A stretch of DNA of 64,000 nucleotides. Source: Bradymonadia bacterium (GTDB taxonomy: Bacteria; Myxococcota_A; Bradymonadia; UBA7976; UBA1532). Below the pieces are notes generated by a model. It was not told where the DNA came from. It saw only the letters and a program-made list of their open reading frames with translations, and ran no database searches. The DNA lies in contig JBKAGE010000039.1 of NCBI GenBank assembly GCA_046290225.1, positions 96,001-160,000 on the forward strand, read 5' to 3'. Each line of letters begins with the position of its first letter. The first letter of the stretch is position 1. The position numbers and the translations under genes were made by a program. Shown here piece after piece: positions 49,090-64,000 of this stretch.

Positions 49090-52000
49090 TCATGGCCCAT
49101 CCTGCTCTGAGTTCGGTGCCTCGGCGTCGAGGCGGAGCCTCAGGTCGTCGGCAATTCTCTGAGGCAGAGGCGCCCACACCGAGCCGCGCTCTTCGCCGAG
49201 ATCATCGTCGAGCCGTTCTGCCTCCATGGCGTCATCCACGACACGGTGACCGTCAACCGCGTACTCGCCGCCCATCGTGACCTCGAAGATGTGGGCGCGA
49301 CCGTGGACGACCCGGAACCGGTGCTCGTCGTACGTGCCGGCGATGTATGGGACGGCGACGTCGAGCGAGCAGTCCCCGTCTCCGTTTCCGCTTCGCTGAA
49401 GGCGCTCGGTCTTGCTGCCTATGCGGTCAACTCGCCCGGTTCGCTGCTCGAGGGTGGCCGGGTTCCACGGCAGGTCGTGGTGAACGACGTGCCGACACTC
49501 GCGGTGCAGGTCGATGCCCTCCTGGCCGACAGTCGTCACGATGAGGACCTCCGGCACAAGAGGCGTGTTGAAGCCCATGAATAGCCGGTCTCGCTCAGAG
49601 CTGGCGACGGATCCAGTGACGCGGGTGACGACATCGCGGTTCCGGCTCGCGTCCTCGTAGGCGGCGATCTGCTCTTCGAGCCCGACCGCCTTCTGCAGCG
49701 TCTCCAGGTAGGCCTCGAACCGCTCGCGTGCCGACTCACCAGCAGCGGGGGGCGACTCGTACCGACGGTGGATGAGCGTGGTCCAGTCGTCGTCGGCCGC
49801 ATCGTCGTCGACGTCGGGCCTCGCGGTCGGATCGTCGAGGATGAAGCGGGCGAGGAAGCCGGGAGACCGGACCAGGCGCCGGAGCATTCGGGCGGCCAGC
49901 GCCCTCAATCGGGCAGGCAGCTCGGCGAGCGCTGCGGCGTGCCATCGGGTGAGCAGACTCGGGACATCCACCGAGCCGTCACGGAGATATGGGGCCAGGA
50001 CCGCCTGACCAGCACGCCCCCTGAGGACGTCGGTCCAGGCGGCCACGTCCTCGGACCGCGCGGTGTCGCCAGCCGCCTCCATGTCCTCATCGTCAGGCAA
50101 TGCCTCAACTTCAGCCTCACGCAGAACGCCCTCGACGACCACACGCCGACGCGCCGGCCAGTCTGGGGCCGAGATGAACGCGATGGCGTCCTCGACAGTC
50201 TCAGCAAGACGAAGAGGTGCAAGGACCTCCCCGAGCCAGGCCCGCCCGGCATCGGAGCACTCCCAGCGAGCGACCAGCGCTTGTTCGACGGCCGCGAGGA
50301 CGCGTCGTCGGTCAAAGCGGCTACGATCGCGAGGTGGACCACCGAGTGCGAGCCGGGCTGCTATCTCCTGGATGTCGCGCTTCCGCAGAGCGAGCTTCCG
50401 CGGCACCCGCCCTCGGCTACCCGCCAGGGGGTGGTCTTGAAAGAGCAGGAAGACCGTCTGGCGGTAGTTGTAGAGCCGCCTCTGGAAGTTCTTGAGGCGC
50501 AGATCCAGCTCTTCGGGGCGGCATTTGAAGGCCGCGGTCAGCACGGCTGTGCTGTGAGCGTCGATCCGTCGGTTCACGGCGGTACGGACAGCGTCGACGG
50601 TGGCGATGTTGAAGCAGAACACCAGGGTCTTGTCGCCCTGAAGCCACGCTCGGAACGCCCGCTCTGCGGTCACGGCGACCTTCGGGTGCTCATGGCTCTC
50701 GCCGTTGACCGCTCGCTGGACGAGCCGGAGGTAGCGCGCCGCTTCTGGACTTCGTCCCGGCAGCATCCTGCGGAGCTCCCCCTCACGGAAGAAAGCGTAG
50801 GACCCACCGAGGTCGGCGCCGAGGCTGGTCGAACCGCGGCCATCCTTCTGTTCCTGCACCGCTCGCATCATCAGGTAGTGCACGAGCTCGGCGTCGCCGT
50901 TCACGTCCAGGCCCGGCCTCCACCTGAGCGCGCTTCCTCGCGCGCTGGGGGCATCGGCTTCGGGCGCGGCCTCGCGTCCGACCCACCAGGCCCGGTGGGA
51001 CACGTCGCGCCGGTGGCGCAGCAGGAACGGCCTGAGGCTCAGACCAAGGCGGGTGTGAGCGTCGCGGACGCTCAGCGCGGCACCGACCGCGCGCTGGAGG
51101 CGCGGCGGCAGCCCCGCCGCTCTCCCCGAATCCCCGTTCCTCGGCCAGGCCGACTCGAGATCGTCGAGGTCGCTGGGCGCAACCTCCGCCCATGCAGCGC
51201 GAAGAGTGTCCCCCGCGCTCCCAGCAGCCCGCAGGTCGGCGTCCAGAGAGGCGACCTGTTCATCGAGGAAGGCGGTTCGCTCCCCCGACAACGCAATGCA
51301 ACGGCGGAGGTTGAGCACGGAGATGAGCTCGTGTGGCCCCAGCTGGAATGGTGTTGCGGACAGCCCCAGAAGCCGATCGATCCGCAGCCCGAGCGTGTGC
51401 TGGAACCGCCACCAGCTCGTCGGGTGGTTCTTCCAGTTGTGGATCTCGTCCACGATGACGAGCGGAAGGCTGTGCGGCACGGTCTGCCCGAGCGCCGCCC
51501 GGCACAGCTCGCGAATGTCTTGCCAGAAGGAAGAACGCTTGCTGCGACCGTTTCGGATCCGCTTCCACGAGTCGCGCAGGCGGTCGCACAGCCAAGGGTC
51601 CATCCGCTCGAGCCGGCGCCACGCACCGCGAACCTGTGCGTCGCCGAAGCCAACCTCGTGCGTGCCCTGGGCGTGCTCCCAGATCGCCGTCGAACGCCTC
51701 AAGTCCAGGTTCTTCCGCGTCGCGTGAGTGGGCCAGTCGTCCAAGAGCTGGAGGCGCTGGTCCATGGACAGACCGAAGCCGTCCATGTGGAGAAGGGAGT
51801 GGATCGCGGCCAGCCGCGCGGTGTCGAGCCGGTGGAGCCTCGCCGAGAACGCCGGCATGCGAGCGATGACAAGCGTCGGACGGCGTAGTCGTAGCGCGTG
51901 CGCGAGCTCGTGCGGCGTCGAGGCCGACTTCACATCGAATCCAAGGCCCGCTGGCGCGACGAGCTTCACGAACCGCTCAGCCTCACGTCGCCACTTCCGA

Positions 52001-52305
52001 AAGAGCGCGTGGGCATGCGGCGTCACCACCAGCACCGGGCCCGTGGCCAGTCCGGCGGCCTTCCGTTGGTGTAGAACCGACCACGCTACGCCCAAGGCCA
52101 CGAACGTCTTTCCCAGCCCCACCTCGTCAGCAAGCAGGACCATCTCCCGGCGCTGCTCGTCATCGTCGTCGTAGAGCCGCTGCAGGATCGCGTCGATCGT
52201 TCGCTCCTGCCTCCCGGCAGCAGCCTCAACGGCGCCGGGGTTGCCGTCCCCGAGCGCTGATCTGAGCGAGCGCCTGAGATCCAGTCCGGCAGGCCGTTCG
52301 ATCAT
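49090..52305 (-). CDS. SF2 (SNF2/ResIII-like) helicase, ZacC-like
   Basis: LLADEVGLGKT, VIVDEIH, GLSATPF, FNTP..P.VLI.T.VGQEGIDLH, WNP..LEQR.GRVDRIG; ATG 52305 overlaps the PLD gene stop (ATGA). Confidence 0.85.
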   Translation of the reverse strand: MIERPAGLDLRRSLRSALGDGNPGAVEAAAGRQERTIDAILQRLYDDDDEQRREMVLLADEVGLGKTFVALGVAWSVLHQRKAAGLATGPVLVVTPHAHALFRKWRREAERFVKLVAPAGLGFDVKSASTPHELAHALRLRRPTLVIARMPAFSARLHRLDTARLAAIHSLLHMDGFGLSMDQRLQLLDDWPTHATRKNLDLRRSTAIWEHAQGTHEVGFGDAQVRGAWRRLERMDPWLCDRLRDSWKRIRNGRSKRSSFWQDIRELCRAALGQTVPHSLPLVIVDEIHNWKNHPTSWWRFQHTLGLRIDRLLGLSATPFQLGPHELISVLNLRRCIALSGERTAFLDEQVASLDADLRAAGSAGDTLRAAWAEVAPSDLDDLESAWPRNGDSGRAAGLPPRLQRAVGAALSVRDAHTRLGLSLRPFLLRHRRDVSHRAWWVGREAAPEADAPSARGSALRWRPGLDVNGDAELVHYLMMRAVQEQKDGRGSTSLGADLGGSYAFFREGELRRMLPGRSPEAARYLRLVQRAVNGESHEHPKVAVTAERAFRAWLQGDKTLVFCFNIATVDAVRTAVNRRIDAHSTAVLTAAFKCRPEELDLRLKNFQRRLYNYRQTVFLLFQDHPLAGSRGRVPRKLALRKRDIQEIAARLALGGPPRDRSRFDRRRVLAAVEQALVARWECSDAGRAWLGEVLAPLRLAETVEDAIAFISAPDWPARRRVVVEGVLREAEVEALPDDEDMEAAGDTARSEDVAAWTDVLRGRAGQAVLAPYLRDGSVDVPSLLTRWHAAALAELPARLRALAARMLRRLVRSPGFLARFILDDPTARPDVDDDAADDDWTTLIHRRYESPPAAGESARERFEAYLETLQKAVGLEEQIAAYEDASRNRDVVTRVTGSVASSERDRLFMGFNTPLVPEVLIVTTVGQEGIDLHRECRHVVHHDLPWNPATLEQRTGRVDRIGSKTERLQRSGNGDGDCSLDVAVPYIAGTYDEHRFRVVHGRAHIFEVTMGGEYAVDGHRVVDDAMEAERLDDDLGEERGSVWAPLPQRIADDLRLRLDAEAPNSEQDGP

Positions 52306-54425
52306 GGCGTGCCTCGATGCATGTCGAGGTAGGTGCGGACGATGGCGGTCCGGTCTTGGTCCGGGAGGTCGGCGGTGGCCTCCGCGAGCAGCGTGCCCAC
52401 TTCGGCGACAGCCTGGGCTCGCAGGGATTCGGTGACACCGTCCGCCAGCTCGGGCAACGGGACACACTGGAGCAGGCGGTGCAGCTCGGCCAATTGGAAC
52501 GCGGTGGCAACGGCCGTCTTCTGGGGACGCCCGGGCTGGGGCTCCCGACGAGCGCGGAGCGCTTCGCGGGCCAGCTCGACCGGAGATCGGTGTCCCAGGA
52601 GCGCCGCACGAAGCCCCGTCTCGGTCATCCCGGCATCGGCCAGACGGTTGCGTATGCCCGGAAGCGCGTGGACGAAGTCGCGCACTAGGTAGCTGAGGAT
52701 GTCGCCCGTGAGCGAAGGCGACTCCTGGGCCCCCTTGACCGGGTCGATGCTGTGTCCGAAGCCCCCGTCCTCGCTCTCGCCAGTCGGGCGCAGGCCCAGG
52801 AACCAGGCGATGAGCGACTGCTCGTCCTCGCGTGAGCGGGACTCGACTACCGGGAAGAGGTGCTTGTCCTCGAAGACGACGGGCACGATGGCGGTGAGCT
52901 CGCCCCACGTGACCTCTGCTTCCAGGTCAGGCAGCGCTGGCCAAGCCCCCCGGTCGGCTTCGGGAAGGTGCTCCATCCACGATGCCCGCAGAGGCGTGGT
53001 GGCATGGAAGAACCCATGAGCATCTGACGGTGCCCCTATCGTCCACGCGTCGAACCACTCCTCCCGATTGAGAAGGCGAGAGCGGATGTCACGCATCCGA
53101 ATGACTACCTCTGGAGGCCACTCTGCCGCATCGCCCTCGAGGACCAGCTCGTCCCTTCGAGCTCGGAGCGAGACGATGAATGTCGGCCAGCCGACGCCGT
53201 CGTCCCCGTCGAAGGGCGTGGGCTCGACCACGAAGTCTTCGGGCGCGCGGGTCACCTTGCGCCACGCGGTCCCGAAGGACAGCACTGCCGTCAAACCAGC
53301 AGCTTCCTTCTTCGGCAGCGCCCACATCAGGCCCGCTTCGGCATTGCTGCTGCTCACCAGGCCCATGCCCTTGCGGGTGAGGTTGAACGAGCCGATCGCC
53401 AGGCGCGTGTGCTTACTCCCTTCGACGAGCAGCGCCTTGGCGTGCAGCGAGCGCTGACCATCAGCCTTGGGCGCGCGACGGGCGGCCACCTCATCGAACT
53501 CCCCCTCGTCGTCCTCGTCGGTCGCCGTGCATCCGTACCCAGGGTCGGCCGCGGCGACCTCGACGGACGCGCCCGCCGTCAGGAGCGCTCGCACGAGACC
53601 GGCCGGGATCACCGGGCGCGCCCGTCCCTTCTCGTCGAGGTCAGCGGGACCGATGAGGCGCACCGTCTTCCAGTTGCCACCACACAGCCTCCGCAGCGCT
53701 GTGGCCACGTCCGATAGGTCGTCGCCCGCCGGCCAGAACGGACTGGAGATGGTCACCCGGGACACCCGGTCTCCCTGGGACGCAAGGGGCGGGAACCCGG
53801 CTTCCGATGGAAGCCCGACGAAGCGCAGCTGCTCAACTCGCCGCGGTGCCGGGCGGTTCTTGAAGACCGCCTTGATATCTCGGAGCTGGCGCGTCACCTG
53901 TTCGGTCGTTTCGCCGACCAGACCTTCGAGCCAGGACACCGCGTCGCGCACTGCGGTCGCAGCTTCGGCGGCGGCCCCGGGCGCATCGTCGATGGCAGCG
54001 CCGACCTCGATGTTGCTTCGGAATCCCGGGCTGGTGAGGTTGGCAGAGCCTACGACCAGTCGCACGACCTGACTTGTTGGCTCTGGCGCTGCGGGCGAGA
54101 CGAACCGCAGTATCGCCACTTTGGCATGCAGCTTCGGGTAGCGCCCCTCCGGGATGGGAACGAGATCAATCCGCGGCGAGCGACGCAGACCGGCCTGATA
54201 CCGGCCGGGGTGGAAGAACACCGACACCTCGGTGTCCTGCAGCGCTCGTTCGAGCTCCAAGCGAAACTCCCTCCCTCGTGCCGCCGGGAGTCGCAGGTCC
54301 AGCGCAACGGGGAGGAGGTCCTCCTCGAGGAAGTCCGCCTGCAGCTCATAGGTGGTCGCCACAGCGCTGGCGAGCCGGTAGCCCTGCGGGGGCTCCCACA
54401 ACTCGAGAAGTCGACGCGCCTTCAC
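52302..54425 (-). CDS. Phospholipase D-family nuclease-like protein with two HxK motifs, ZacB-like
   Basis: LHAKVAILRF...VGSANLT and LHAKALL...IGSFNLT; AVATTYEL N-terminus; GTGA overlap with the upstream gene. Confidence 0.8.
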   Translation of the reverse strand: MKARRLLELWEPPQGYRLASAVATTYELQADFLEEDLLPVALDLRLPAARGREFRLELERALQDTEVSVFFHPGRYQAGLRRSPRIDLVPIPEGRYPKLHAKVAILRFVSPAAPEPTSQVVRLVVGSANLTSPGFRSNIEVGAAIDDAPGAAAEAATAVRDAVSWLEGLVGETTEQVTRQLRDIKAVFKNRPAPRRVEQLRFVGLPSEAGFPPLASQGDRVSRVTISSPFWPAGDDLSDVATALRRLCGGNWKTVRLIGPADLDEKGRARPVIPAGLVRALLTAGASVEVAAADPGYGCTATDEDDEGEFDEVAARRAPKADGQRSLHAKALLVEGSKHTRLAIGSFNLTRKGMGLVSSSNAEAGLMWALPKKEAAGLTAVLSFGTAWRKVTRAPEDFVVEPTPFDGDDGVGWPTFIVSLRARRDELVLEGDAAEWPPEVVIRMRDIRSRLLNREEWFDAWTIGAPSDAHGFFHATTPLRASWMEHLPEADRGAWPALPDLEAEVTWGELTAIVPVVFEDKHLFPVVESRSREDEQSLIAWFLGLRPTGESEDGGFGHSIDPVKGAQESPSLTGDILSYLVRDFVHALPGIRNRLADAGMTETGLRAALLGHRSPVELAREALRARREPQPGRPQKTAVATAFQLAELHRLLQCVPLPELADGVTESLRAQAVAEVGTLLAEATADLPDQDRTAIVRTYLDMHRGTP

Positions 54426-55750
54426 GATGCAGCCTCCCACGCCCCTGCCTCTCGGAGCATGCCGGCGAACTGTTCGATCCGGTACGGATGGGTGAACGCC
54501 GAGGCGCTCGGCTTCTCCGGCCTCTCGTCGAGGGCGTACCGAGGCGCCACGACGACTTCATGCCCGCGAAGCTCAACCCATGGGAGCTTCGGCTGCCTGG
54601 AGGCGTCCAGCTTGCCCGCCTGGACCCGTTCGTGATGACGCACCAGACCCTCGACCAGGCGAGCTTCGTCAGGGGCCCGAACTGTGGGTTCGACGGCCAG
54701 GCTGAAACCGTGAACAGCGTCAGCCACTGCGTGCGGCAGGCTCGCTCCATGGGCACTCAGCGCGCTCTTCAGTGCGTCGCCCAGGTCCTCGAGCGCGGCA
54801 GAGCCGCCGGCGAGACCGATTGACTTCGCCGGTACTGGCCGGCGGTAGCCGACAGCCCGAATCTGGTCGAAGCGGTAGAGCAGCTCTCGGTGGAGGTTCT
54901 CAAACGCGGACGCCACTGCAAGAACGGCAGCGAGGCGTTCCGACAGTGGGTCCCGCTCCTTCCGGAGTTGAGCGTTCAGTCCTTGGAAGGTGTCCCCATC
55001 GGACGACGTGCCGTCGGTCGCCTGCATCGCCGCGGCCACCTTCCGGTGTGCGCCTGGCTCCAGAAGGGCGTCGGCCAAGAGACGGCGCTCACGTGTCGTC
55101 GCAGCACCGAGGTGGGCGCTCCGCCCCCATTCGACAAGGGCCTGCTCCGAAAGGCTGGGCGAATCTCCGCGCACGACTCGCAGCAGTGTTCCTCGGTTTG
55201 GCGTGCTGCGATGGCGGAGGAAGGCTTCGGCAAGCTCCACTCCGCGCGGCGTGAGCGCACCCGACTCGTGTTCGACGAGCCCTCCCGCCACCAACGTGAC
55301 CCAGTACGTGCCGACGCCGCCAACGCCCGCCTGGTTGCGGAGCATCGGGAACGCCGGTGACCGAATCCCCTCCGAAACCGCACGGCGGACGTAGGACACG
55401 CCGCGAAGTTGTCGCCAGGCCGGGCAGTCCTCGGTCACGCCCTCCGCCTTGGCGTAGGTGCCGGTGGCGAGCGCAACCAGCCTCTCCCAGGCGAGGACTT
55501 GTTGTCTCCGTGCTCGCCCCGCGCGTCCACCGGTGGGCGCATCGGGCACGTCGTCGAGAAGTCGGAGCCCGGCGCAGACCCACGAGAGGTAGCGAACCCG
55601 GGACGTGATCGTCGTGACGCCGGGGAGCAGGGTCGTGGCGATGGCCGTGAACGGCCTGAGCGCTCCAAGCGGATCAATGCTACCGGAGCTGGCCGCTCGA
55701 GGATCCCAGGCAGAAACGAACGGGAGTGGCAGGCCGGCGTTAGTTGTCAC
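54422..55750 (-). CDS. Hypothetical protein, DUF6361/ZacA-like
   Basis: N-terminal W...G.IDPLG......LLPGVTTITSRVRYL motif; GGAGG RBS before GTG. Confidence 0.65.
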   Translation of the reverse strand: MTTNAGLPLPFVSAWDPRAASSGSIDPLGALRPFTAIATTLLPGVTTITSRVRYLSWVCAGLRLLDDVPDAPTGGRAGRARRQQVLAWERLVALATGTYAKAEGVTEDCPAWRQLRGVSYVRRAVSEGIRSPAFPMLRNQAGVGGVGTYWVTLVAGGLVEHESGALTPRGVELAEAFLRHRSTPNRGTLLRVVRGDSPSLSEQALVEWGRSAHLGAATTRERRLLADALLEPGAHRKVAAAMQATDGTSSDGDTFQGLNAQLRKERDPLSERLAAVLAVASAFENLHRELLYRFDQIRAVGYRRPVPAKSIGLAGGSAALEDLGDALKSALSAHGASLPHAVADAVHGFSLAVEPTVRAPDEARLVEGLVRHHERVQAGKLDASRQPKLPWVELRGHEVVVAPRYALDERPEKPSASAFTHPYRIEQFAGMLREAGAWEAAS

Positions 55751-55792: not shown

Positions 55793-57547
55793 TCATTGCT
55801 CGGCCTCGAAGTAGTCCTCGGTCAACCCTGGATTCGGCGCGAACTCGCGCCACTGAATCATGATCTCGCCAACCTCCATAGGCTCACTGCCGATTCGCTC
55901 GAGCGCGGCGTTCACCCGGTCGCACTGGGATTCGTTCAGGTAGAAGCGATGCCGGTCCAGCCAGTTGATCGCGGGGTGGTAGTTGTCGCGGCTTGATGAC
56001 TCCAGTTGGGCGAGCTGCTCCTCGATCGTACTTCGCGCAACTCGGGGCTTGAGCACCGGGATCACGTCGACGGTCCGATCGTCGGACACGACGACCGCTA
56101 GCCGAGGTACCTCAGACGCCCCCACGTACCGAATGCCCGAGTTGTACCTGGAACCTCGAGATGGCGTGCACTCGGGTCGCGCAGGACCATCGAGAATCAC
56201 GCCGATCGCGTGGCAGACGCAGTGGGGGTCCACGATAATCGTGCCGTCGATGTCACTCACACGACGATAGAGCGAAGGGCTGAGCTTCACCGGCGAAACG
56301 CGCGTGCCTTGCCCACGCAGGCGCTCGGCTTCGTCAGCTGCATCCCGTGCAACAACCAACATGCTTCCGTGGCGTTGAGCAACCGCCGTATCGAATAGCG
56401 CTGTGAACGCATCAACGTCGTCGTCTGTTGCCTCGTCGAAGAGCCGGCGGAAGGTGTCAACGAGTCGGTTCCGGGGAAACCGCTCTTGCGGCAATGCTGG
56501 GACTCCGTACCGGCTGACGAGCAAGACCTGCTCGCCGCAGCAGAGGCTCCAGTGGAAGTGGTCGTGGAACTCGACCATGAAGACATTCTGGGTTGCCATC
56601 GGGTCGACACCGTCGGCGACAGTTCCGAGGCCCAGGATGTTCTCGCAGTCCGCGATGAGCGCGGTCTCCGCCGAGGCCATCTGGAGCACCTTTCGCGCCC
56701 ATCGGGGTTGCCGGAACGGCACCGGCTCCGAGAGCTCAAGGTGGACATCGACCGCCGACCCGCTGGGGTTCGCCAGCAGCATGCGGCCTGTGCCCTCGGT
56801 GCCCTCGTACATCAATGAGGAGATTAAGTTGAATCGCTCGAAGAGGTCGGCCCCCCCATAGTTCCGTGTTCCGATGGAAAGCACCGGTGTGTGCATGAAG
56901 TCTGTCGCTGCTCGACGGACGATCTCCTCCGCCGAGCGAGAGCGACCACTGAGAAGACGGCCAGGGTCGGGACGCAGCAGCTCGTCGTAGGCTTCGTTCA
57001 AGACCTGGGCCACAGCGGAGTGAATCAGGCTGGGGCTTCCGTGGAAGTGTCCATCTGTGATCGGCTCGTTTAGAGGCGGGAACCGATGGAAGATCGCCTC
57101 CGGTAGCTGCAGGACCGGGACGACGTAGTAGCCTTCCACCGGAGCCGGACGGCCAGCAAACGAGCGGACCTCGTTGTCGCTGTCGTAGGTTGCGAGCGCG
57201 GCCTGCACCGCCTTCCGTGCCGAGTCGCGGCGGATGTTCTCCGGCTTGTCGCGCATGCTCGGCTCGTCGCCGTAGTACATGTTCTGCAACGGGTGCTCGC
57301 GCACCTCGGCTTCGATAGCGGCCAGCAAACCGTCGAAGAGCTCCAGGGGCCACTTTCCATCCTCGGGTTCGACGCACACTTCGTGTGGCTTCGATTCCCC
57401 TGGGACCGTCGCCCCGACCACAAGGCATTCCGCTCCGGCATCCTCGACCCCGAGCTCGGCCATGACGTTGTTCATCCGACGCTCGACGTCGTATCTGTAG
57501 TGCAGCTGGTACCCCCACATGAATAGCGTGATCGTCTTTCGGCTCAT
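55793..57547 (-). CDS. DisA_N/diadenylate-cyclase-like domain protein with long N-terminal putative sensor region (DACNG/DACNH-like)
   Basis: HGSMLVV, SDIDGTIIVD, AIGVILDG, SRGSRYNS, VVVSDD.TV: the DAC fold with DGT and RYNS variants of DGA and RHR; YEG motif upstream; GGAGG RBS. Confidence 0.75.
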   Translation of the reverse strand: MSRKTITLFMWGYQLHYRYDVERRMNNVMAELGVEDAGAECLVVGATVPGESKPHEVCVEPEDGKWPLELFDGLLAAIEAEVREHPLQNMYYGDEPSMRDKPENIRRDSARKAVQAALATYDSDNEVRSFAGRPAPVEGYYVVPVLQLPEAIFHRFPPLNEPITDGHFHGSPSLIHSAVAQVLNEAYDELLRPDPGRLLSGRSRSAEEIVRRAATDFMHTPVLSIGTRNYGGADLFERFNLISSLMYEGTEGTGRMLLANPSGSAVDVHLELSEPVPFRQPRWARKVLQMASAETALIADCENILGLGTVADGVDPMATQNVFMVEFHDHFHWSLCCGEQVLLVSRYGVPALPQERFPRNRLVDTFRRLFDEATDDDVDAFTALFDTAVAQRHGSMLVVARDAADEAERLRGQGTRVSPVKLSPSLYRRVSDIDGTIIVDPHCVCHAIGVILDGPARPECTPSRGSRYNSGIRYVGASEVPRLAVVVSDDRTVDVIPVLKPRVARSTIEEQLAQLESSSRDNYHPAINWLDRHRFYLNESQCDRVNAALERIGSEPMEVGEIMIQWREFAPNPGLTEDYFEAEQ

Positions 57548-58275
57548 GCTTCCTCCGTGGGGGCCTCAGCGGACTTTGGAGACGCGCCTGCCTCAGTTTC
57601 AGCAGTGGCCTCGGGCTCATCACTGCCTGAGGCAGCGTGGCCGCCGTGCTTGGTCGTCTCAAAGGCCTTGTCAGCTTCTGCGAAGCTGCCGTGTTGCTCG
57701 TCTACTCGGAGCCGACCCTGAAGCTCACCTGCACTGTTGCGGTCCGTCCAGTACTGGCCTACCAAGCCGGTTGCTGGGTCGCCTTCGACGTCTAGGAGGA
57801 TCGCGCCGTAGTGGATGGGGCTACGGTCACGTACGGCGAGCTGAGGCTCGTTGCGGTACACGCCCGAGATTCTGTACACACCATCCTCCGCGCGATGAAC
57901 TGACGACCCGACAAGCTCGGAGCTCGACTCGTCGGTCATCAGCCGCAGGCTCAGATGGGAATAGGTCTGGCGAACAACGAGGTAGCCGGTCTTCTCCGGC
58001 ACCACCTCGCCCGTCGCCGGGTCTTGCCAGTTGCTCTTCAGACTCACCCGCCAAGTACCGTTCAGGTTGGGTTTCTCAACGAACCACCCGTGTAGCCATC
58101 GCCACTTCCATGCCCAGTGTTGAAAGGCTAGGAGGAGCAGCGACATGGAGGTAATGGTCGCGGACATCGACGTCAGCCATTCGATCTTCACCGCGACGCC
58201 GCTGACAAGGAGCACCAGCCCGCTGATGACCGCTGCCGCGATCAGTATCGTGCTCAAGTGAAGTCGAGAGATCAT
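57544..58275 (-). CDS. cap15: CBASS Cap15-like 2TM beta-barrel membrane effector
   Basis: Two TM helices, W.WKW, PNLNGTW...L.SNW, VRQT, T.ESSS, YRNEP, HYG, GQYWTDR..AG; ATGA overlap with the cyclase. Confidence 0.85.
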   Translation of the reverse strand: MISRLHLSTILIAAAVISGLVLLVSGVAVKIEWLTSMSATITSMSLLLLAFQHWAWKWRWLHGWFVEKPNLNGTWRVSLKSNWQDPATGEVVPEKTGYLVVRQTYSHLSLRLMTDESSSELVGSSVHRAEDGVYRISGVYRNEPQLAVRDRSPIHYGAILLDVEGDPATGLVGQYWTDRNSAGELQGRLRVDEQHGSFAEADKAFETTKHGGHAASGSDEPEATAETEAGASPKSAEAPTEEA

Positions 58276-59174
58276 CCGAGCACCCCCACGTACGTCCAAG
58301 CGCCCACGACGAACTGTCTCGCCTGCTCTCGCGTCCACGGTTGACTGGGCCGAAACAGGTACTTGAGCTCGTTGACCTCGCCCCACTCGCGGCACGTCTC
58401 GTCCTTCTCGGTGGCGGAGTAGAGGTAGGCCAGGATGCGTGCCACATCGTCGGTGTATGCCGCGCTTCCGAAGTGCTTGTCGGGCACGTTCCAAACAAGG
58501 CACTCGATCAGGTATGAGGGAATCGGCGCCGCCTCGGCTCTTCCGGCTTGCTCCATCTCGTTGCGCAGCCGTTTGAGGATTCGGACCATCTTCTTGTATC
58601 GCGTGCCAGTATCCTGGTTCTTGTTGGTGCCGTTGCGGTAGTTCTGCTCCGGCCAGTTCACGATGCGTCCGCCGTTGTCTGGGTGCAGCTCCGTCCCGGA
58701 CAGGTAGCGGACCTGGCCCAACACGTCGCGGTAGTACCGGCGATGCTCGAATGTCGGAACGACATCCGCGTCGACGCGGTAGCTGTTCTCGTGGAGGTCG
58801 ATTGCCTTGTTGCCGCGGGTCACGCTCTTTGCCCCCAGATAGGCTCGGAGCGCTGCCTCGACGTCGTCCTTGAACTGCCCGTAGGTATAGCTGGCGGTCA
58901 CGAGCCCCACATCGGCATCGGTGGTCCCATCGGAGTGGTCGGCGAAGAAGACATCCATGCAGCGAACACACACATCGACGTCGCTGTCGGAGCGCACGTT
59001 TGTCCCGTTGCGGTACGAGCCCTGGGCAAAGACCTCTATGTTCCTGGTAGCGAAGCCGACGTAGGAGCGCACCGCGTTCCGCACGACACTGACCGCGTTG
59101 TCACACCGGTCCGTTTCGGTTGTCGAAGGCGGGCGGCCCCACGAACGAAAGTCTTGTTCCCAGTCTCGTCCCAT
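58272..59174 (-). CDS. cdnE: CBASS CD-NTase (SMODS nucleotidyltransferase), CdnE-like
   Basis: W.RPPS.TE, FAQGSYRNGTNVRSDSDVD, GNKAI, DADVVP, IVNWPEQ, YKKMVRILK, PSYLIECLVWNVP, EVN.LKYLF. Confidence 0.9.
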   Translation of the reverse strand: MGRDWEQDFRSWGRPPSTTETDRCDNAVSVVRNAVRSYVGFATRNIEVFAQGSYRNGTNVRSDSDVDVCVRCMDVFFADHSDGTTDADVGLVTASYTYGQFKDDVEAALRAYLGAKSVTRGNKAIDLHENSYRVDADVVPTFEHRRYYRDVLGQVRYLSGTELHPDNGGRIVNWPEQNYRNGTNKNQDTGTRYKKMVRILKRLRNEMEQAGRAEAAPIPSYLIECLVWNVPDKHFGSAAYTDDVARILAYLYSATEKDETCREWGEVNELKYLFRPSQPWTREQARQFVVGAWTYVGVLG

Positions 59175-59206
59175 CACTGCTCTCGTCGAGATACTCATCG
59201 CGTCAC

Positions 59207-59938
59207 CTACAGCCGGAAGTTGATGCCTTCGCGGCGAAGCCGCTCCTTGCGTGTTTCGTGGTCGGGCTGGATCATGCCGAGAAGCTTCCAGAAACGTGCC
59301 GAGTGGTCGGCGACGCGCAGGTGGCAGACCTCGTGAGCGACGACGTAGTCGACGAGTGACATCGGCCCCATGACGATGCGCCAGTTGAACCTAAGCTCGC
59401 CCTTCGACGTGCAGCTGCCCCAGCGCTTCGCCTGGTCCCGGACCAGCACCTTTGGCTCATCTACTCCGAGGCGCTCGGCGTACAGCCGCACGCGCTCGGG
59501 GATGCGCTTCGCGGCAAGTCCCTTGTACCAGGCCGTCAGTGCCGAACGAACGAGCGTTGCCTGCGTGCCGGCTTCGGGGATCGTCGTCTCCAACCATCCG
59601 CCGCGAAGCTTGACGATCGCCGACTCGCAGCCCGCGCGCCGATTGACGAGGAGTCGGTATTGTCGTCCGAGGTAGCTGAACGACTCGCCGCTGACGAACT
59701 CGCGAGGAGGTGGGGGCGGCCCCAGCTCTTCGAACTCGGCCAGCCGTTGCACGACCCAAGCTCCCTTCTCGCGCACCACGTCATCGATCGCTTGGCCGTC
59801 GAGTTCCTCCGGCGCCAGGACCAGCACGCCATCTGCGAGGTCGACGGCGATCGTCACCGTGCTTCGGCGCGCGCTTCTGTGGACGACGAAGGGTATCGTG
59901 CTCGTCCCGAAGCTGATGGATCGCTCAGTACCCATCAT
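59207..59938 (-). CDS. M48/YgjP (DUF45, SprT-like) zinc metallopeptidase associated with type I R-M
   Basis: GESFSYLGRQYRL, KRWGSC, LRFNWR, DYVVAHEVCHL...HS.RFW. Confidence 0.9.
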   Translation of the reverse strand: MMGTERSISFGTSTIPFVVHRSARRSTVTIAVDLADGVLVLAPEELDGQAIDDVVREKGAWVVQRLAEFEELGPPPPPREFVSGESFSYLGRQYRLLVNRRAGCESAIVKLRGGWLETTIPEAGTQATLVRSALTAWYKGLAAKRIPERVRLYAERLGVDEPKVLVRDQAKRWGSCTSKGELRFNWRIVMGPMSLVDYVVAHEVCHLRVADHSARFWKLLGMIQPDHETRKERLRREGINFRL

Positions 59939-62913
59939 CGCTTCACCAACTGCACGCGAGCAAGGTCGAGAATCTTCGCGGTCATCGGCTCGATGGCCGC
60001 GCGATCGAACCCCGCCGCCTTCAGCCGCTTCTTCACCGCCATGCGCATGCGGCGCTGCACATCGTCCTTGAGGTGCCAGTCCACAACCGTGAGCCCCTCC
60101 AGCGACTCCAGGACGTCGCGAGCAAGGTCCCGGCGCGCCATCTCTGGAAGCAGGCCATCGGGCGCCTCGCCGTCGACGGCGGCCTGAGCGAAGACCTCGA
60201 AGATCGCGTACCCCGGCTCGGACAGACCGAGTTCATCAGCGCGAGCTGGGATGTCGCGTATGTCGAGAACGATGTGAGTCAGCAGGGACAGCTGCTCCGC
60301 AGCGGTGATCTGCTCCTCGCGTCGCTGCTGGATGATTCGCTCCAGAGTTTCCGACAGTGACTGAAACACTACGGGGTTCTCGTCCATCCGCACGTTGATC
60401 TCGTGCCGGATGGCGTGCTCCATCTCGCTCGCGCGAGCCTCGTCCGACCCAAGCTTTTTCACCTCCTCCTCGAATTCGGCGGCGAGGATCGAGATGGGCT
60501 CGACAAGCCCCTGCACATCGGTCGTGGTGATGTGCTGCTCGATGAGGGCGCGCACCTTGGCTCGGCATCCTGTCAGGTCGAACTGGTCATCGCGGAACCG
60601 CACCCGAGCGGCGTTGCGCACTTTGCCGAGCCACTTGAGGTCATCGACGAACGGCAGCGCGCTGGGATCCGGAAGGAGCATGTCGAGGGACTGGGAGAAG
60701 CGCCGAAACGCCATCTCGAACTCCGCCCTGACGTCTTCGGGCTCCAACACTTTGAGACAGGCTTCCAGGTCGGAGTGGTCGACCCGTTGAAAGAAGCGCA
60801 TCACCCGGCGATGCCTGGATTCCAGCTGCGGGAGCTCGGATGTCCTCGGCTTCATCGCCCCCTGCACGTCGCTCGGGGAAAAGATAGCTAGGGCCTCCTC
60901 GAGGTGATGGGCGACACCCCAGTAGTCGACGACCAGACCGAAGTCCTTGTTGTCGGCCGTCCGGTTCACACGGGCGATAGCCTGCAGGAGAGTGTGCTCA
61001 CGCAGCGATGAGTCGAGGTACATCACCTGCTCAACTGGGGCATCGAAGCCCGTGAGCAGCATGTCGCACACCACGATGATGGAAAGAGGGTCGTCGGGAT
61101 CCTTGAAGCGCTCGATGAGGGTGCGCTGTTCGTCCTTGCTCGTCTTCCACTTGACCAGGTGTTCCGGGTCGTTGTGGGACGTGGACATGATGATCGCCGA
61201 CGGCGGCGCTCCCAGTCTGTCGAGCGTTTCCTTGTACGTGACCGCAGCTTCTCGAGAGCAAGCGACGACCTGAGCCTTGAATCCGTTGGGCCGGATGTGT
61301 TGCTCGAAGTGCTCGATGATGTCGAGACAGATGCGTTCGACGCGGCGGGGCGCCCCAGCGATGGCCTCGGCCGTGGCATAGCGCGATTTGATTGCCTCGC
61401 GCTCCTCATCGCTCCGGTCCTTGAAATAGCGGCCAAACAGGGCGTCGATGCTCGTGCCGAGCACCTGGTCCATCGGCTGCCTCATCTCGTAGAAGATGGG
61501 GACGGTGGCTTCGTCCTGGACAGCCTGCTCGATGGTGTAGGTGTGGATGTAGCGCCCAAACGTCTGGAAGGTGCTCTTGTCCTTCTTGTCGATCGGGGTT
61601 CCGGTGAAACCGAGGAAGCAGGCGTTGGGGAGAGCACGGCGCATGTTGGCAGCGAGGCTGCGGTACTGAGTTCGGTGAGCCTCATCGACCATCACAAAGA
61701 TGTTCTCGGCCCGGTTGAGGACCGGGTGACGGTTCGAAGAGGACTCCTGGAACTTCTGCACGGTGGTCATCACCGTCTGGCCCGTGTCCTTCGACAGCAA
61801 CGACCGCAGGTGCTTGACGCTCTTGGCTTGCTCCGGATTGGGGAATCCGCACCGCTTGAACGTCGTCGAGATCTGTCGGTCGAGATCGCGGCGATCCGTG
61901 ACCACGACGAGGGTCGGGTTCTCGGTCGAGGGCAGACGCCGAAGCTTCACGGCCAGGTAGACCATGGTGAGAGACTTGCCCGAGCCCTGGGTGTGCCACA
62001 CCACGCCGCCTCGCTCGTTTGGTCGCGGCGCGGCAGTGATCCGCTCAAGCGCTCGGTTCACCGCGATGAATTGCTGGTAGCGGGCGAGCTTCTTGACGGT
62101 CTTGGAACCCTCGACCTCGAAGACGATGAAGTTGCGGATGAGGTCGAGGAGGTTCTCGGGCCGGAACACGCCCCAAAGGAGCGCCTCTTGAGCACGAGGG
62201 ATCCTTCCGATTTCACGCTGAAGTTCATCGAGGGTTAGCGGGAAGGGGACCTTCCAGTACCCCCAGAATCGCCCCGGCGTTGCGGTCGTGGCGTACTTCG
62301 CCGCTTCTCCGCACGTGCTGACGAGAATCTGCGCGGTGTGAAACAGCCGCGGGGCGCCAAGGTTGCGAAACCCGTCGGTGAGCTCTTGATACCGGGTCAT
62401 CTGCTTGATGCCCTCGTCGAGAGGGGCTCGGATAGTCGGGCTCTTGCACTCGACTATCCCAATCGGGATGCCGTTCACGAACACCACGAGGTCCGGGATG
62501 ATCGTCTTCTTCCCACCCTGGACCCGATACTGGCGAGTGAACACGAGCTCGTTGTTGGTAGGGGTTTCGAAGTCGATATACCGGACGGTCTGCCCCTGGA
62601 GTCCGTGGCCGAGGTCCTGCGGCAGCGAGATGTTGTGGACGAGGGCGGTGTGAACCTTCTCGTTGGCATCGATCAGCCCGGTCGCGGCGACATGCGAAAG
62701 GTGTTGGACCGCATTCTGGACGTTGACGTCATCGATCCAGGGATTGAGCCGCCGCAGGGCGGCCTGCAGGCGGCCGATGAGGAGGGGCTCCGACTGGGAC
62801 GCCCGCTCGGCATCGAGTTCATCAGCCGGGACGAAGGTGTATCCCAACCGCTCGAGCAAGTCGGCGGCGGGTTCTTCCGCGAGGTGGATCTCGTTCCAGT
62901 CGGTGGTGCTCAT
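59935..62913 (-). CDS. hsdR: Type I restriction endonuclease subunit R
   Basis: PDLVVFVNGIP...ECK, WHTQGSGKS, VTDR.DLD, DEAHRTQY, FTGTP, MLLTGFDAP, QAIARVNR. Confidence 0.95.
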   Translation of the reverse strand: MSTTDWNEIHLAEEPAADLLERLGYTFVPADELDAERASQSEPLLIGRLQAALRRLNPWIDDVNVQNAVQHLSHVAATGLIDANEKVHTALVHNISLPQDLGHGLQGQTVRYIDFETPTNNELVFTRQYRVQGGKKTIIPDLVVFVNGIPIGIVECKSPTIRAPLDEGIKQMTRYQELTDGFRNLGAPRLFHTAQILVSTCGEAAKYATTATPGRFWGYWKVPFPLTLDELQREIGRIPRAQEALLWGVFRPENLLDLIRNFIVFEVEGSKTVKKLARYQQFIAVNRALERITAAPRPNERGGVVWHTQGSGKSLTMVYLAVKLRRLPSTENPTLVVVTDRRDLDRQISTTFKRCGFPNPEQAKSVKHLRSLLSKDTGQTVMTTVQKFQESSSNRHPVLNRAENIFVMVDEAHRTQYRSLAANMRRALPNACFLGFTGTPIDKKDKSTFQTFGRYIHTYTIEQAVQDEATVPIFYEMRQPMDQVLGTSIDALFGRYFKDRSDEEREAIKSRYATAEAIAGAPRRVERICLDIIEHFEQHIRPNGFKAQVVACSREAAVTYKETLDRLGAPPSAIIMSTSHNDPEHLVKWKTSKDEQRTLIERFKDPDDPLSIIVVCDMLLTGFDAPVEQVMYLDSSLREHTLLQAIARVNRTADNKDFGLVVDYWGVAHHLEEALAIFSPSDVQGAMKPRTSELPQLESRHRRVMRFFQRVDHSDLEACLKVLEPEDVRAEFEMAFRRFSQSLDMLLPDPSALPFVDDLKWLGKVRNAARVRFRDDQFDLTGCRAKVRALIEQHITTTDVQGLVEPISILAAEFEEEVKKLGSDEARASEMEHAIRHEINVRMDENPVVFQSLSETLERIIQQRREEQITAAEQLSLLTHIVLDIRDIPARADELGLSEPGYAIFEVFAQAAVDGEAPDGLLPEMARRDLARDVLESLEGLTVVDWHLKDDVQRRMRMAVKKRLKAAGFDRAAIEPMTAKILDLARVQLVKR

Positions 62914-64000
62914 TCGCTCACCCTCCCGTCGGTGTCGTTGAGCTTGGCGATCAGCTCGGCAGGCATGCGGACGCGGCCGCTCAGGAGCTCCTTGGCGAGG
63001 CCGCGCTTCATCTCGGTGAGCTCAGCGAGGTAGCGGGTCTCGGCTTCGATCCGGGTGTCGAAGGCTCGGCCCACGTCAGCGATGACCTCCTGCTCCTCGG
63101 GTGGGGGAAGCAGGATGCGTATCTTCTTGAACACCGGCATGTAGATGTCCGGCAGCACGGAGCCGGCCTGCAGTCTCTTCCACTCGCGGTCCATGTGCCG
63201 GAACACCTGAACCAGGTAGTCCGGTTGGAGCTTCGGACCGCAGACCCAGTTGGCGAAGTGCTGGCTGGTGGCCATCTCTCGACCCATCTTGGAGCAGAGT
63301 CCTACAGAGGCCGTTCGGAGCAGAACCACGGTGCCCTTGGGGAGCAGGCGGGCCGAGGAGTTTGCAAGGCCGAGCGTGCCGATCGTCTGCGTTGTGTCTC
63401 TGATCTCAAGGCCCCGCAGTCCCTCTGAATCAGTGAGGGAGATCCAAGGGATCTCTCCGTCCCAGTACTCTGGGCGCTTGCGGCTGGGCGTGTGGCCGCT
63501 CTCGAGGCGTGCGATCTTGGTTAGCTGGACGAGCTGCCAGTGCGCCGGGATCTCCTCGATGTTCGGAGCCACACGACCCATGGGCCAAGTGCTCGGTAGG
63601 GGCTGCATCTCGGTGCGGAAGCGAGGGTGACCGAGGGTCAGCAGCTCCCGCATGCTTTGGTGTTTCGAGATCCGAAGCTGTTGGATGAGGGCCTCGGTCG
63701 ATGCAATGGCGCCGGCCACTCGATCGATGCATGCGCCGATCGCGACCTGCTCATCGAGTGGGGGGAAGGTGACCCGAGAGGCCAGGAACTCGGCCGGCGA
63801 CACGCGCTGTGCCTTTCGCGAGCCGATGGCGCTTCCGCGGTAGCGCTTGTAGAAGGCCGGGCGCGAGACGTGTGCCACCAGCCAAGTCGGGTCGACTTCT
63901 CCACGAATGTCGAAGCACGGCAGATCGGAGGTGCTCTCGAAGCCGTCAAGCTCAGGCGGAATGAGTCCGAAAGCACCGTTGAGGAAGTCGAGCTTGCTGT
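62910..64000 (-). CDS. hsdS: Type I R-M specificity subunit S (5' end outside window)
   Basis: Frame open to the window edge (SKLDFLNGAFGLIP...); PPLDEQ, IPAHW, SGHTPS...YWDGEIPWI, LPPPEEQ, KRGL.KELLSG. Confidence 0.9.
   Translation of the reverse strand, partial: SKLDFLNGAFGLIPPELDGFESTSDLPCFDIRGEVDPTWLVAHVSRPAFYKRYRGSAIGSRKAQRVSPAEFLASRVTFPPLDEQVAIGACIDRVAGAIASTEALIQQLRISKHQSMRELLTLGHPRFRTEMQPLPSTWPMGRVAPNIEEIPAHWQLVQLTKIARLESGHTPSRKRPEYWDGEIPWISLTDSEGLRGLEIRDTTQTIGTLGLANSSARLLPKGTVVLLRTASVGLCSKMGREMATSQHFANWVCGPKLQPDYLVQVFRHMDREWKRLQAGSVLPDIYMPVFKKIRILLPPPEEQEVIADVGRAFDTRIEAETRYLAELTEMKRGLAKELLSGRVRMPAELIAKLNDTDGRVSE

Follow-up and report, generated by a model that had tools for sequence, protein, structure and literature searches.

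The window, a stretch of 64,000 nt from a Bradymonadia bacterium, contained three minus-strand open reading frames in the order cdnE, cap15 and cdaG, flanked by other genes on the same strand:

58272..59198, minus strand: cdnE, a clade E CD-NTase of 308 aa, with an alternative start at 59174
57544..58275, minus strand: cap15, a 2TM-beta (S-2TMbeta) effector of 243 aa
55793..57547, minus strand: cdaG (DS-2C), 584 aa, with DACNG, DACNH and DAC domains and a C-terminal helical bundle
59207..64000, minus strand: type I restriction-modification hsdS and hsdR and a YgjP-like metallopeptidase gene; hsdS is cut by the window end
49090..55750, minus strand: a three-gene cassette (unknown, PLD, SNF2-like helicase), ZacA/ZacB/ZacC-like in PADLOC

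The trio is an operon. Its genes overlap by ATGA at 58272-58275 (cdnE/cap15) and 57544-57547 (cap15/cdaG), as the original prediction had stated, although these overlaps alone prove little because the island has the same kind of overlap between hsdS and hsdR (62910-62913) and between hsdR and ygjP (59935-59938). The YgjP-like gene ends 8 nt before cdnE, and cdaG is separated by 42 nt from the Zac-like cassette, which matched ZacA (E 1e-4), ZacB (E 1.5e-28) and ZacC (E 3e-33). The trio is not an assembly artefact, since contigs of two other public studies bridge its junctions: the X4 record (57226-58417) spans both, and X1 records span each. A promoter and terminator search at the trio yielded nothing informative, with signals at shuffle level, and RNA-library contigs (X18) covered only short pieces, which do not demonstrate transcription. 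GC and GC3 of the trio were not clearly distinct from those of the island.

Properties of the three proteins

The CD-NTase was recognized by a PADLOC cyclase model (E 5.5e-127), and its closest solved structure was LpCdnE (7x4f, E 2e-90), whose catalytic Asp67 and Asp139 align with Asp75 and Asp145 of CdnE. Homology to LpCdnE starts at residue 10 of the 308-aa form, and the second in-frame ATG lies at 59174, which is where the original prediction placed the start. Residues N181, N186, E274 and Q286-x-W288 correspond to the residues that set the cyclic di-UMP specificity of LpCdnE, and cyclic di-UMP is the product predicted from them; they include the lid-1 Asn (N181), Glu partner (E274) and (R/Q)xW motif (Q286-x-W288) that indicate a cyclic di-pyrimidine. 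These three features were present in all 11 CdnE proteins linked to cdaG and cap15, which formed a single clade (FastTree 0.897), and (R/Q)xW occurred in none of 28 patatin-type CD-NTases. The clade of the window protein was separate from the patatin-type DS2_2 CD-NTases, and its score against NF053871 (DS2_2) was 200 bits, under the cut-off of 350.

Cap15 matched Pfam PF18153 (59.3 bits, cut-off 31.2) and consists of a hydrophobic N-terminus, a Cap15 receptor domain (residues 67-186) and a low-complexity tail. Of the 62 residues invariant in 13 cdaG-linked Cap15s, 61 occurred in at least one of six cdaG-free relatives whose partners are related CdnE enzymes, a comparison that gave no sign of retuning in the pocket of the cdaG-linked proteins. 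PanE-like proteins encoded at two cdaG loci (L052 and L053) fell near the window Cap15 clade (35-37% identity); these carry YQSDP, whereas the window Cap15 and CBASS Cap15s carry YRNEP. One member of the Cap15 family is activated by c-di-AMP (DancE preprint).

A profile search of the 584-aa protein, proposed with the original prediction, detected both DACNG (Pfam PF21752, E 1.6e-57, residues 10-218) and DACNH (PF21750, E 1.9e-23, residues 234-335), followed by DAC (about 355-498) and the helical bundle. Full-length CdaG had no match to Pfam DAC (PF02457), but residues 386-500 alone scored 31.3 bits (cut-off 27), and the structural model matched the DisA/CdaA fold (Z 12.6-13.1). PADLOC, Pfam and structure matches thus upheld the three gene identities first proposed (CdnE-like, Cap15-like and DAC-fold), and the PADLOC check that had also been suggested recognized the CD-NTase and had no model matching the 584-aa protein. 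The whole-model match of the DACNG region to Roadblock/GAF folds (Z 5-6) was within background, a PDB sequence search gave chance matches only, and an Atlas look-alike search returned no named match. CdaG exceeded the cut-off of NCBIfam NF053872 (DS2_3 equivalog; 712.6 bits, cut-off 630).

The DAC motifs of CdaG are D434-G435-T436 and R464-G-S-R467-Y-N-S470, in which D434, G435, R464, G465, R467, N469 and S470 were invariant across 18 aligned sequences. DGA-like and RHR-like motifs were both present in 118 of 120 homologues, with identical spacing in 117, and were unchanged beside cUU-type, patatin-type and DncV-like cyclases. The Asp-to-Arg spacing of CdaG is 33 (D434-R467), the same as in TmDisA (D75-R108, with R108 inferred from T107 and the RHR motif), compared with 37 in RePanS (D71-R108), and leaves no extended lid of the kind that allows cUA synthesis in PanDA/Panoptoo. 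DS-2C homologues synthesise c-di-AMP in vitro, and these assays together with the motif spacing suggest that CdaG makes 3'3'-c-di-AMP.

Distribution and conservation

Among 64 informative clusters of CdaG homologues, 48 adjoined CBASS genes of three kinds, in agreement with the non-random link originally predicted, and 16 had no CBASS gene nearby, including two located between BREX pglX and pglZ. The cap15 gene was directly upstream of cdaG in 13 of the 64 (stop/start overlap in 9 of 12 junctions checked), and the three-gene block was conserved across phyla. Losses of cdaG are under-counted because CdaG served as the query for collecting the loci. In a quick tree, Cap15-linked CdaGs fell into one clade (SH-aLRT 100) with eight CBASS-free CdaGs, which were their nearest kin, and with one beside a patatin-type CdnE. 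Genome-wide searches with four queries (Cap15, SMODS, DncV-like and CdnE) found none of these in four of five solo-CdaG genomes. An apparent cdnE-cap15 fusion (L009) was rejected, as it contained a 100-N scaffold gap, and was counted as a probable trio. No further loci were found in a viral scan with CdnE or in a 400-genome scan centred on G048, and cdaG was not found in 40 relatives examined.

The CdnE-Cap15 pair also occurs alone. A closed genome contained relatives of CdnE (58%) and Cap15 (56%) and no CdaG genome-wide, and on three Vibrio plasmids that carried such a pair (48-49% and 37-38%) the flanking 4 kb contained no DAC; Vibrio is not known to have housekeeping c-di-AMP. A housekeeping DAC was present in all five cdaG-free relatives of the same phylum and in four of six solo-CdaG genomes. 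The window's host itself carries folP-cdaA-cdaR, and five of eight trio genomes have a second DAC. Minimal-DAC and 2TM-beta pairs (PanDA-like), separate from cdaG, adjoin it at three loci (L034, L052 and L053).

All three genes are under purifying selection, with dN/dS values of 0.09-0.13 against locus L001. At L056, a single metagenomic contig, cdnE has lost 815 nt and is reduced to a 72-nt stub. This stub differs from its L008 counterpart at 18 of 72 nt and 8 of 24 aa, compared with 174 of 2427 nt and 62 of 809 aa for cap15 and cdaG together (Fisher p 4e-6 and 4e-4, respectively), in which dN/dS was 0.17-0.19. Locus L003 retains cap15 and cdaG with just 30 codons of cdnE, and is weak evidence because the contig may be chimeric.

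Relationship to described systems

The arrangement, which the original prediction took to be undescribed, is already described: CBASS with a DAC gene is DS-2 (DeWeirdt et al., Science 2026, PMC13092281) or CBASS-DAC, also Liu-DS2 (NAR 2026, PMC13069673), and the 2TM-beta version appears in the text and the Fig. 4g legend of a preprint (Nabhani et al., 2026, bioRxiv 10.64898/2026.08.10.743972). The window shares with DS-2/CBASS-DAC a CD-NTase, an effector and a DACNG-DACNH-DAC protein of ~580 aa that passes the DS2_3 cut-off. It differs from the tested system in its order (cyclase-effector-DAC), in having Cap15 in place of a patatin phospholipase effector (PMC13092281, PMC13069673), and in a CD-NTase of the cUU-signature group that misses the DS2_2 cut-off, whereas the tested one is DS2_2-type. 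In tested DS-2, DAC catalytic mutants lose defence (PMC13092281/PMC13069673), both the DAC and the residues with which the effector binds the signal are required, and mutation of the cGAS has a minor effect, so that the CD-NTase is nearly dispensable; Acb1 blocks defence, whereas the sponges Tad1, Tad2 and Acb2 do not. Cap15 had 0 matches in the searched supplements of the two papers, and among the papers searched, mostly open-access ones, none put the Cap15 version to an experimental test.

According to its text and legend, the operon of Fig. 4g in the preprint is presented without a test and has the same three components, all adjacent, with no demonstrable difference from the window; the window's host additionally has housekeeping CdaA-CdaR. 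The authors suggest in that text that two cyclases widen sensitivity via a shared effector, and leave open there whether the effector reads both products. The closest solved structures, a full match of specificity residues and the Cap15 partner also connect the window to the cyclic di-UMP type I CBASS of LpCdnE, ClCdnE and EfCdnE (PMC10442399), from which it differs by the added cdaG. PanDA/Panoptoo (10.64898/2026.08.10.743972 and.743927) and Panoptes (PMC12657218) likewise place a DAC or mCpol gene beside a 2TM-beta effector, but these are two-gene guards with a minimal constitutive synthase of ~150 aa and no CD-NTase in the unit, whereas the window has a three-domain DAC in a three-gene unit headed by a CD-NTase. 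The Panoptes signal, named as c-di-AMP in the original prediction, is indeed c-di-AMP, specifically the 2'3' isomer, produced by an mCpol enzyme (PMC12657218); canonical DACs make the 3'3' isomer.

Possible roles of CdaG

There is about an even chance that the locus is a CBASS-DAC (DS-2-type) operon in which CdnE and CdaG are separate phage sensors, each activating the same Cap15. CdaG would stay inactive until infection is sensed by its DACNG/DACNH region, and would then produce a burst of c-di-AMP well above the host housekeeping level; Cap15 would bind this signal, oligomerise and disrupt the inner membrane, aborting the infection. This reading draws on the DS2_3 match, the linkage of cap15 to cdaG, the single clade of cdaG-linked CdnEs, purifying selection on all three genes, the c-di-AMP-activated member of the Cap15 family and the retention of cap15 and cdaG at L056 and L003; the pocket without signs of retuning and the grouping of Cap15-linked with solo CdaGs count against it. 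An activating rather than repressing signal is supported because DAC mutants of tested DS-2 lose defence and Acb1 blocks it, and the CdaG signal would likewise activate in the Cap15 version. A c-di-AMP-activated Cap15 would need a high threshold because of the host folP-cdaA-cdaR and the second DAC of most trio genomes. The locus poses two puzzles, namely a cyclic di-UMP signature in CdnE beside a likely c-di-AMP synthase, and a housekeeping CdaA-CdaR already in the host.

This product mismatch and CdaA-CdaR lend some weight to an effector-independent role, although it is unlikely. CdaG would be an independent defence gene that settled behind CdnE-Cap15, the latter being a cyclic di-UMP type I CBASS of the usual sort, and its phage-triggered overproduction of c-di-AMP would act without Cap15 by ATP drain or by flooding host c-di-AMP receptors; the original prediction was right to list both this and a second input to Cap15. 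The 16 CBASS-free clusters, the solo genomes without matches to the four queries, the close kinship of eight solo CdaGs to Cap15-linked ones, the housekeeping DACs of solo genomes, the seemingly unchanged Cap15 pocket and the constancy of the DAC motifs beside three cyclase types are consistent with such a role. However, the solo genomes are mostly incomplete MAGs that may hold effectors outside the four queries, the association of 48 clusters with three kinds of CBASS genes is hard to obtain by chance insertion, tested DS-2 requires the effector residues that bind the signal, and cap15 has stayed conserved in L056 despite the loss of cdnE. The L056 data fit effector-independent CdaG only slightly less well than the Cap15-activating reading. 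It is rather improbable that CdaG makes a distinct signal (uracil-containing or differently linked) read by a cyclic di-UMP-type Cap15 in hosts with housekeeping c-di-AMP; cap15-cdaG would then be a self-sufficient CBASS-like unit with the DAC replacing the CD-NTase, as in L056, and solo CdaG an effector-free defence hijacking host c-di-AMP circuits.

The lead idea of the original prediction, a Panoptes-like repressing signal, fitted poorly and appears very unlikely here, although another DAC class, the minimal PanS of PanDA/Panoptoo, does realise it. Constitutive c-di-AMP from CdaG would hold Cap15 off until phage sponges or nucleases released it. Dinucleotides do repress two 2TM-beta effectors, OptE and PanE, the second of which binds 3'3'-c-di-AMP; PanE-like proteins lie near the window Cap15 clade, and the housekeeping DACs of cdaG-free relatives could supply a repressor. 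Yet the DAC signal of tested DS-2 activates, the closed genome and the Vibrio plasmids carry CdnE-Cap15 without cdaG, guard DACs are minimal, unlike CdaG with its two putative sensor domains, distinct minimal-DAC pairs adjoin cdaG, and the YQSDP and YRNEP motifs differ. Little probability also attaches to a role in which CdaG floods the infected cell with c-di-AMP that saturates phage sponges and Acb1, sparing the CdnE signal for the activation of Cap15. This would account for one unchanged DAC paired with cyclases of differing predicted products, but it requires an active CD-NTase, against which the minor effect of cGAS mutation in DS-2 and the retention of cap15 and cdaG without cdnE in L056 speak, and it leaves solo CdaG unexplained.

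Systems of this class are already in the literature and are being actively studied, so the locus is no discovery in its own right. It offers a clean test of a question left open by the 2026 preprints, namely whether a single effector can read what two unrelated cyclases produce, and sharp predictions follow from the mismatch of cyclic di-UMP and c-di-AMP, the unchanged Cap15 pocket, the coexisting CdaA and the natural cdnE deletion. The coexistence of CdaG with housekeeping CdaA limits the preprint idea, drawn from PanS, that immune and housekeeping DACs are mutually exclusive.

The CdnE-Cap15-CdaG operon and its described class

The operon and the adjoining cassette comprise the following:
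58272-59198, minus strand: cdnE, CD-NTase
57544-58275, minus strand: cap15, effector
55793-57547, minus strand: cdaG, 584-aa protein
49090-55750, minus strand, starting 42 nt past cdaG: cassette of three genes (unknown, PLD, SNF2-like helicase); PADLOC matches ZacA/ZacB/ZacC-like, partial for the helicase

All three genes lie on the minus strand, and they and the ATGA overlap at each of the two junctions were present as originally predicted. The first gene encoded a clade E CD-NTase (PADLOC cyclase model, E 5.5e-127) with LpCdnE as its closest solved structure (E 2e-90), and the second encoded Cap15 (PF18153, above cut-off). Profile searches confirmed a DAC protein, with a DACNG-DACNH-DAC architecture; Pfam DAC matched only when the domain was searched in isolation (31.3 bits, cut-off 27), NCBIfam NF053872 (DS2_3) scored 712.6 bits (cut-off 630), and the AlphaFold model (mean pLDDT 85) resembled DisA and CdaA. 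The junctions were bridged by contigs from two other public studies. The trio is real, intact, and conserved. It lies inside a longer co-directional defence island, with a type I restriction system and ygjP on one side and the Zac-like PLD-helicase cassette on the other; CdaG was not found among 40 relatives, which is consistent with a mobile island.

The arrangement had been thought undescribed, but CBASS with a DAC is already published as DS-2 (PMC13092281; PMC13069673). DS-2, consisting of a phospholipase, a cGAS, and a DAC, was validated by DeWeirdt et al. (PMC13092281), who report that 15 of 30 DAC homologues adjoin CBASS and that DAC catalytic mutants lose defence. According to PMC13069673, CBASS-DAC requires both the DAC and those residues with which the effector binds the signal, is little affected by cGAS mutation, and is blocked by Acb1 and not by Tad1, Tad2, or Acb2. 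Ragucci et al. (10.64898/2026.08.10.743927) report c-di-AMP as the in vitro product of DS-2C proteins, the group that includes CdaG. Operons combining CdaG, a CD-NTase, and a 2TM-beta effector are shown by Nabhani et al. (10.64898/2026.08.10.743972, Fig. 4g), who suggest that a shared effector would let two cyclases widen sensitivity.

Genes beside cdaG

The 105 loci collected (19 genome, the best 80 of 533 metagenome, 5 of 11 plasmid matches, and 1 viral; a second viral match of 25% identity was left out) formed 83 clusters at 95% CdaG identity, a sample biased toward close relatives of the window CdaG. Nineteen clusters with no CBASS gene seen and less than 2 kb of upstream sequence were set aside, and 64 were kept. 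The proposed association recurred, as cdaG adjoined CBASS genes in 48/64 clusters. Cap15 genes were found in 13 (10 with the trio complete, L009, which contains a scaffold gap, and L003 and L056, in which cdnE is cut or deleted), patatin plus CdnE in 28 (L035 included), CdnE with the effector off contig in three, type II CBASS in three (L095 assigned by its JAB gene alone), and patatin only in one. The remaining 16 had no CBASS genes nearby; thus, CBASS is optional for cdaG. L108 is a locus in the window's own genome (C34:448609-451968), and in L021 and L103 cdaG is divergent from patatin-cdnE. Individual arrangements, in coordinates local to each locus, were:
L046:1521-7740 and L089:1517-7743: type II CBASS (patatin, DncV-like cyclase, Cap2 E2-E1, Cap3 JAB), then cdaG directly
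L007:5998-7770 and L061:5998-7770: solo cdaG between BREX pglX and pglZ, no effector
L085:2-2254: CdaG of the Cap15-linked clade directly behind patatin-type CdnE, effector off contig
L034:3681-4782, L052:3918-5037, and L053:7766-8840: PanDA/Panoptoo-like minimal DAC and 2TM-beta pair directly downstream of cdaG

Further solo cdaG genes adjoin MmeI-like or type ISP restriction genes. Across 400 genomes of the phylum, Cap15 matched in nine, one of which held cdaG, with the same sequence as locus L001. The same scan placed no cdaG near six other Cap15 and CdnE pairs, and searches of the whole genome, covering five of these six, also detected none; cdaG is therefore optional for this CdnE-Cap15 family. 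On a Bacillus plasmid (L136:3977-5482), CdnE and Cap15 are annotated on opposite strands, convergent.

Ancestry, selection, and predicted products

In a quick IQ-TREE analysis of 62 CdaG rows (contig-edge loci dropped except L085), the Cap15-linked CdaGs fell within one 24-row clade (SH-aLRT 100), together with eight solo CdaGs and L085, separate from most patatin-linked CdaGs. The L085 locus suggests that cdaG swaps CBASS partners. All three trio genes were under purifying selection. The most informative locus was L056. Compared with L008:893-4231, L056:1242-3765 had a natural 815-nt deletion in cdnE, flanked by short repeats; what is left of cdnE lacked its start codon and had decayed, differing from L008 at 18/72 nt, with seven differences in the equivalent stretch of intact L010, whereas cap15 and cdaG were intact and under purifying selection (174/2427 nt differing from L008, dN/dS 0.17-0.19). 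This single contig fits a cap15-cdaG pair working without a CD-NTase, a candidate two-gene unit, and resembles the DS-2 mutant data in which the CD-NTase is nearly dispensable.

In alignment, N181, N186, E274, and Q286-x-W288 of the window CdnE matched the residues of LpCdnE reported to select pyrimidines (PMC10442399). These were kept in 11/11 CdnE rows linked to cdaG and cap15, and (R/Q)xW occurred in 0/28 patatin-type rows. The CdaG motifs DG[T/A/S] and RG[S/A]R[Y/F]NS were constant across partner types, and CdaG did not carry the extended lid found in PanS, which makes cUA (Asp-to-Arg spacing 33 in CdaG vs 37 in PanS); the CdaG product is therefore likely 3'3'-c-di-AMP, as judged from these sequence features. 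The cdaG-linked Cap15s had nearly no private residues, since 61/62 invariant positions also occurred in cdaG-free relatives.

Possible modes of action

There is about an even chance that CdnE and CdaG are two sensors that would each activate the common Cap15 effector. Nucleotide is reported to activate Cap15, unlike OptE (PMC12657218), and c-di-AMP can activate Cap15 proteins in another system, DancE (10.64898/2026.10.06.757031). It is less probable, and on balance unlikely, that CdaG provides defence independently, with CBASS as its neighbour, a reading favoured by four of five solo-cdaG genomes, in which no Cap15, SMODS, DncV-like, or CdnE match was found. The original prediction favoured a guard, in which the CdaG product holds Cap15 off, yet this is improbable because it conflicts with DS-2 genetics. 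Moreover, three cdaG loci have separate minimal-DAC and 2TM-beta pairs, which suggests that the guard role falls to other genes; in L052 and L053 these ORFs are divergent on opposite strands and the DAC scores below the Pfam cut-off. Equally doubtful is that c-di-AMP would act as chaff, saturating phage sponges and Acb1 and sparing the CdnE signal, which also conflicts with DS-2 genetics.

The weakest step of the two-sensor activating model is the need to clear the basal c-di-AMP pool. The host genome carries folP-cdaA-cdaR, and an activating c-di-AMP signal must exceed the pool of this housekeeping DAC. A second DAC was present in 5/8 trio, 4/6 solo, and 0/4 patatin-type genomes, small numbers drawn mostly from incomplete MAGs. 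The window trio is a further member of the described system class, in a Cap15 form with a predicted defence role.
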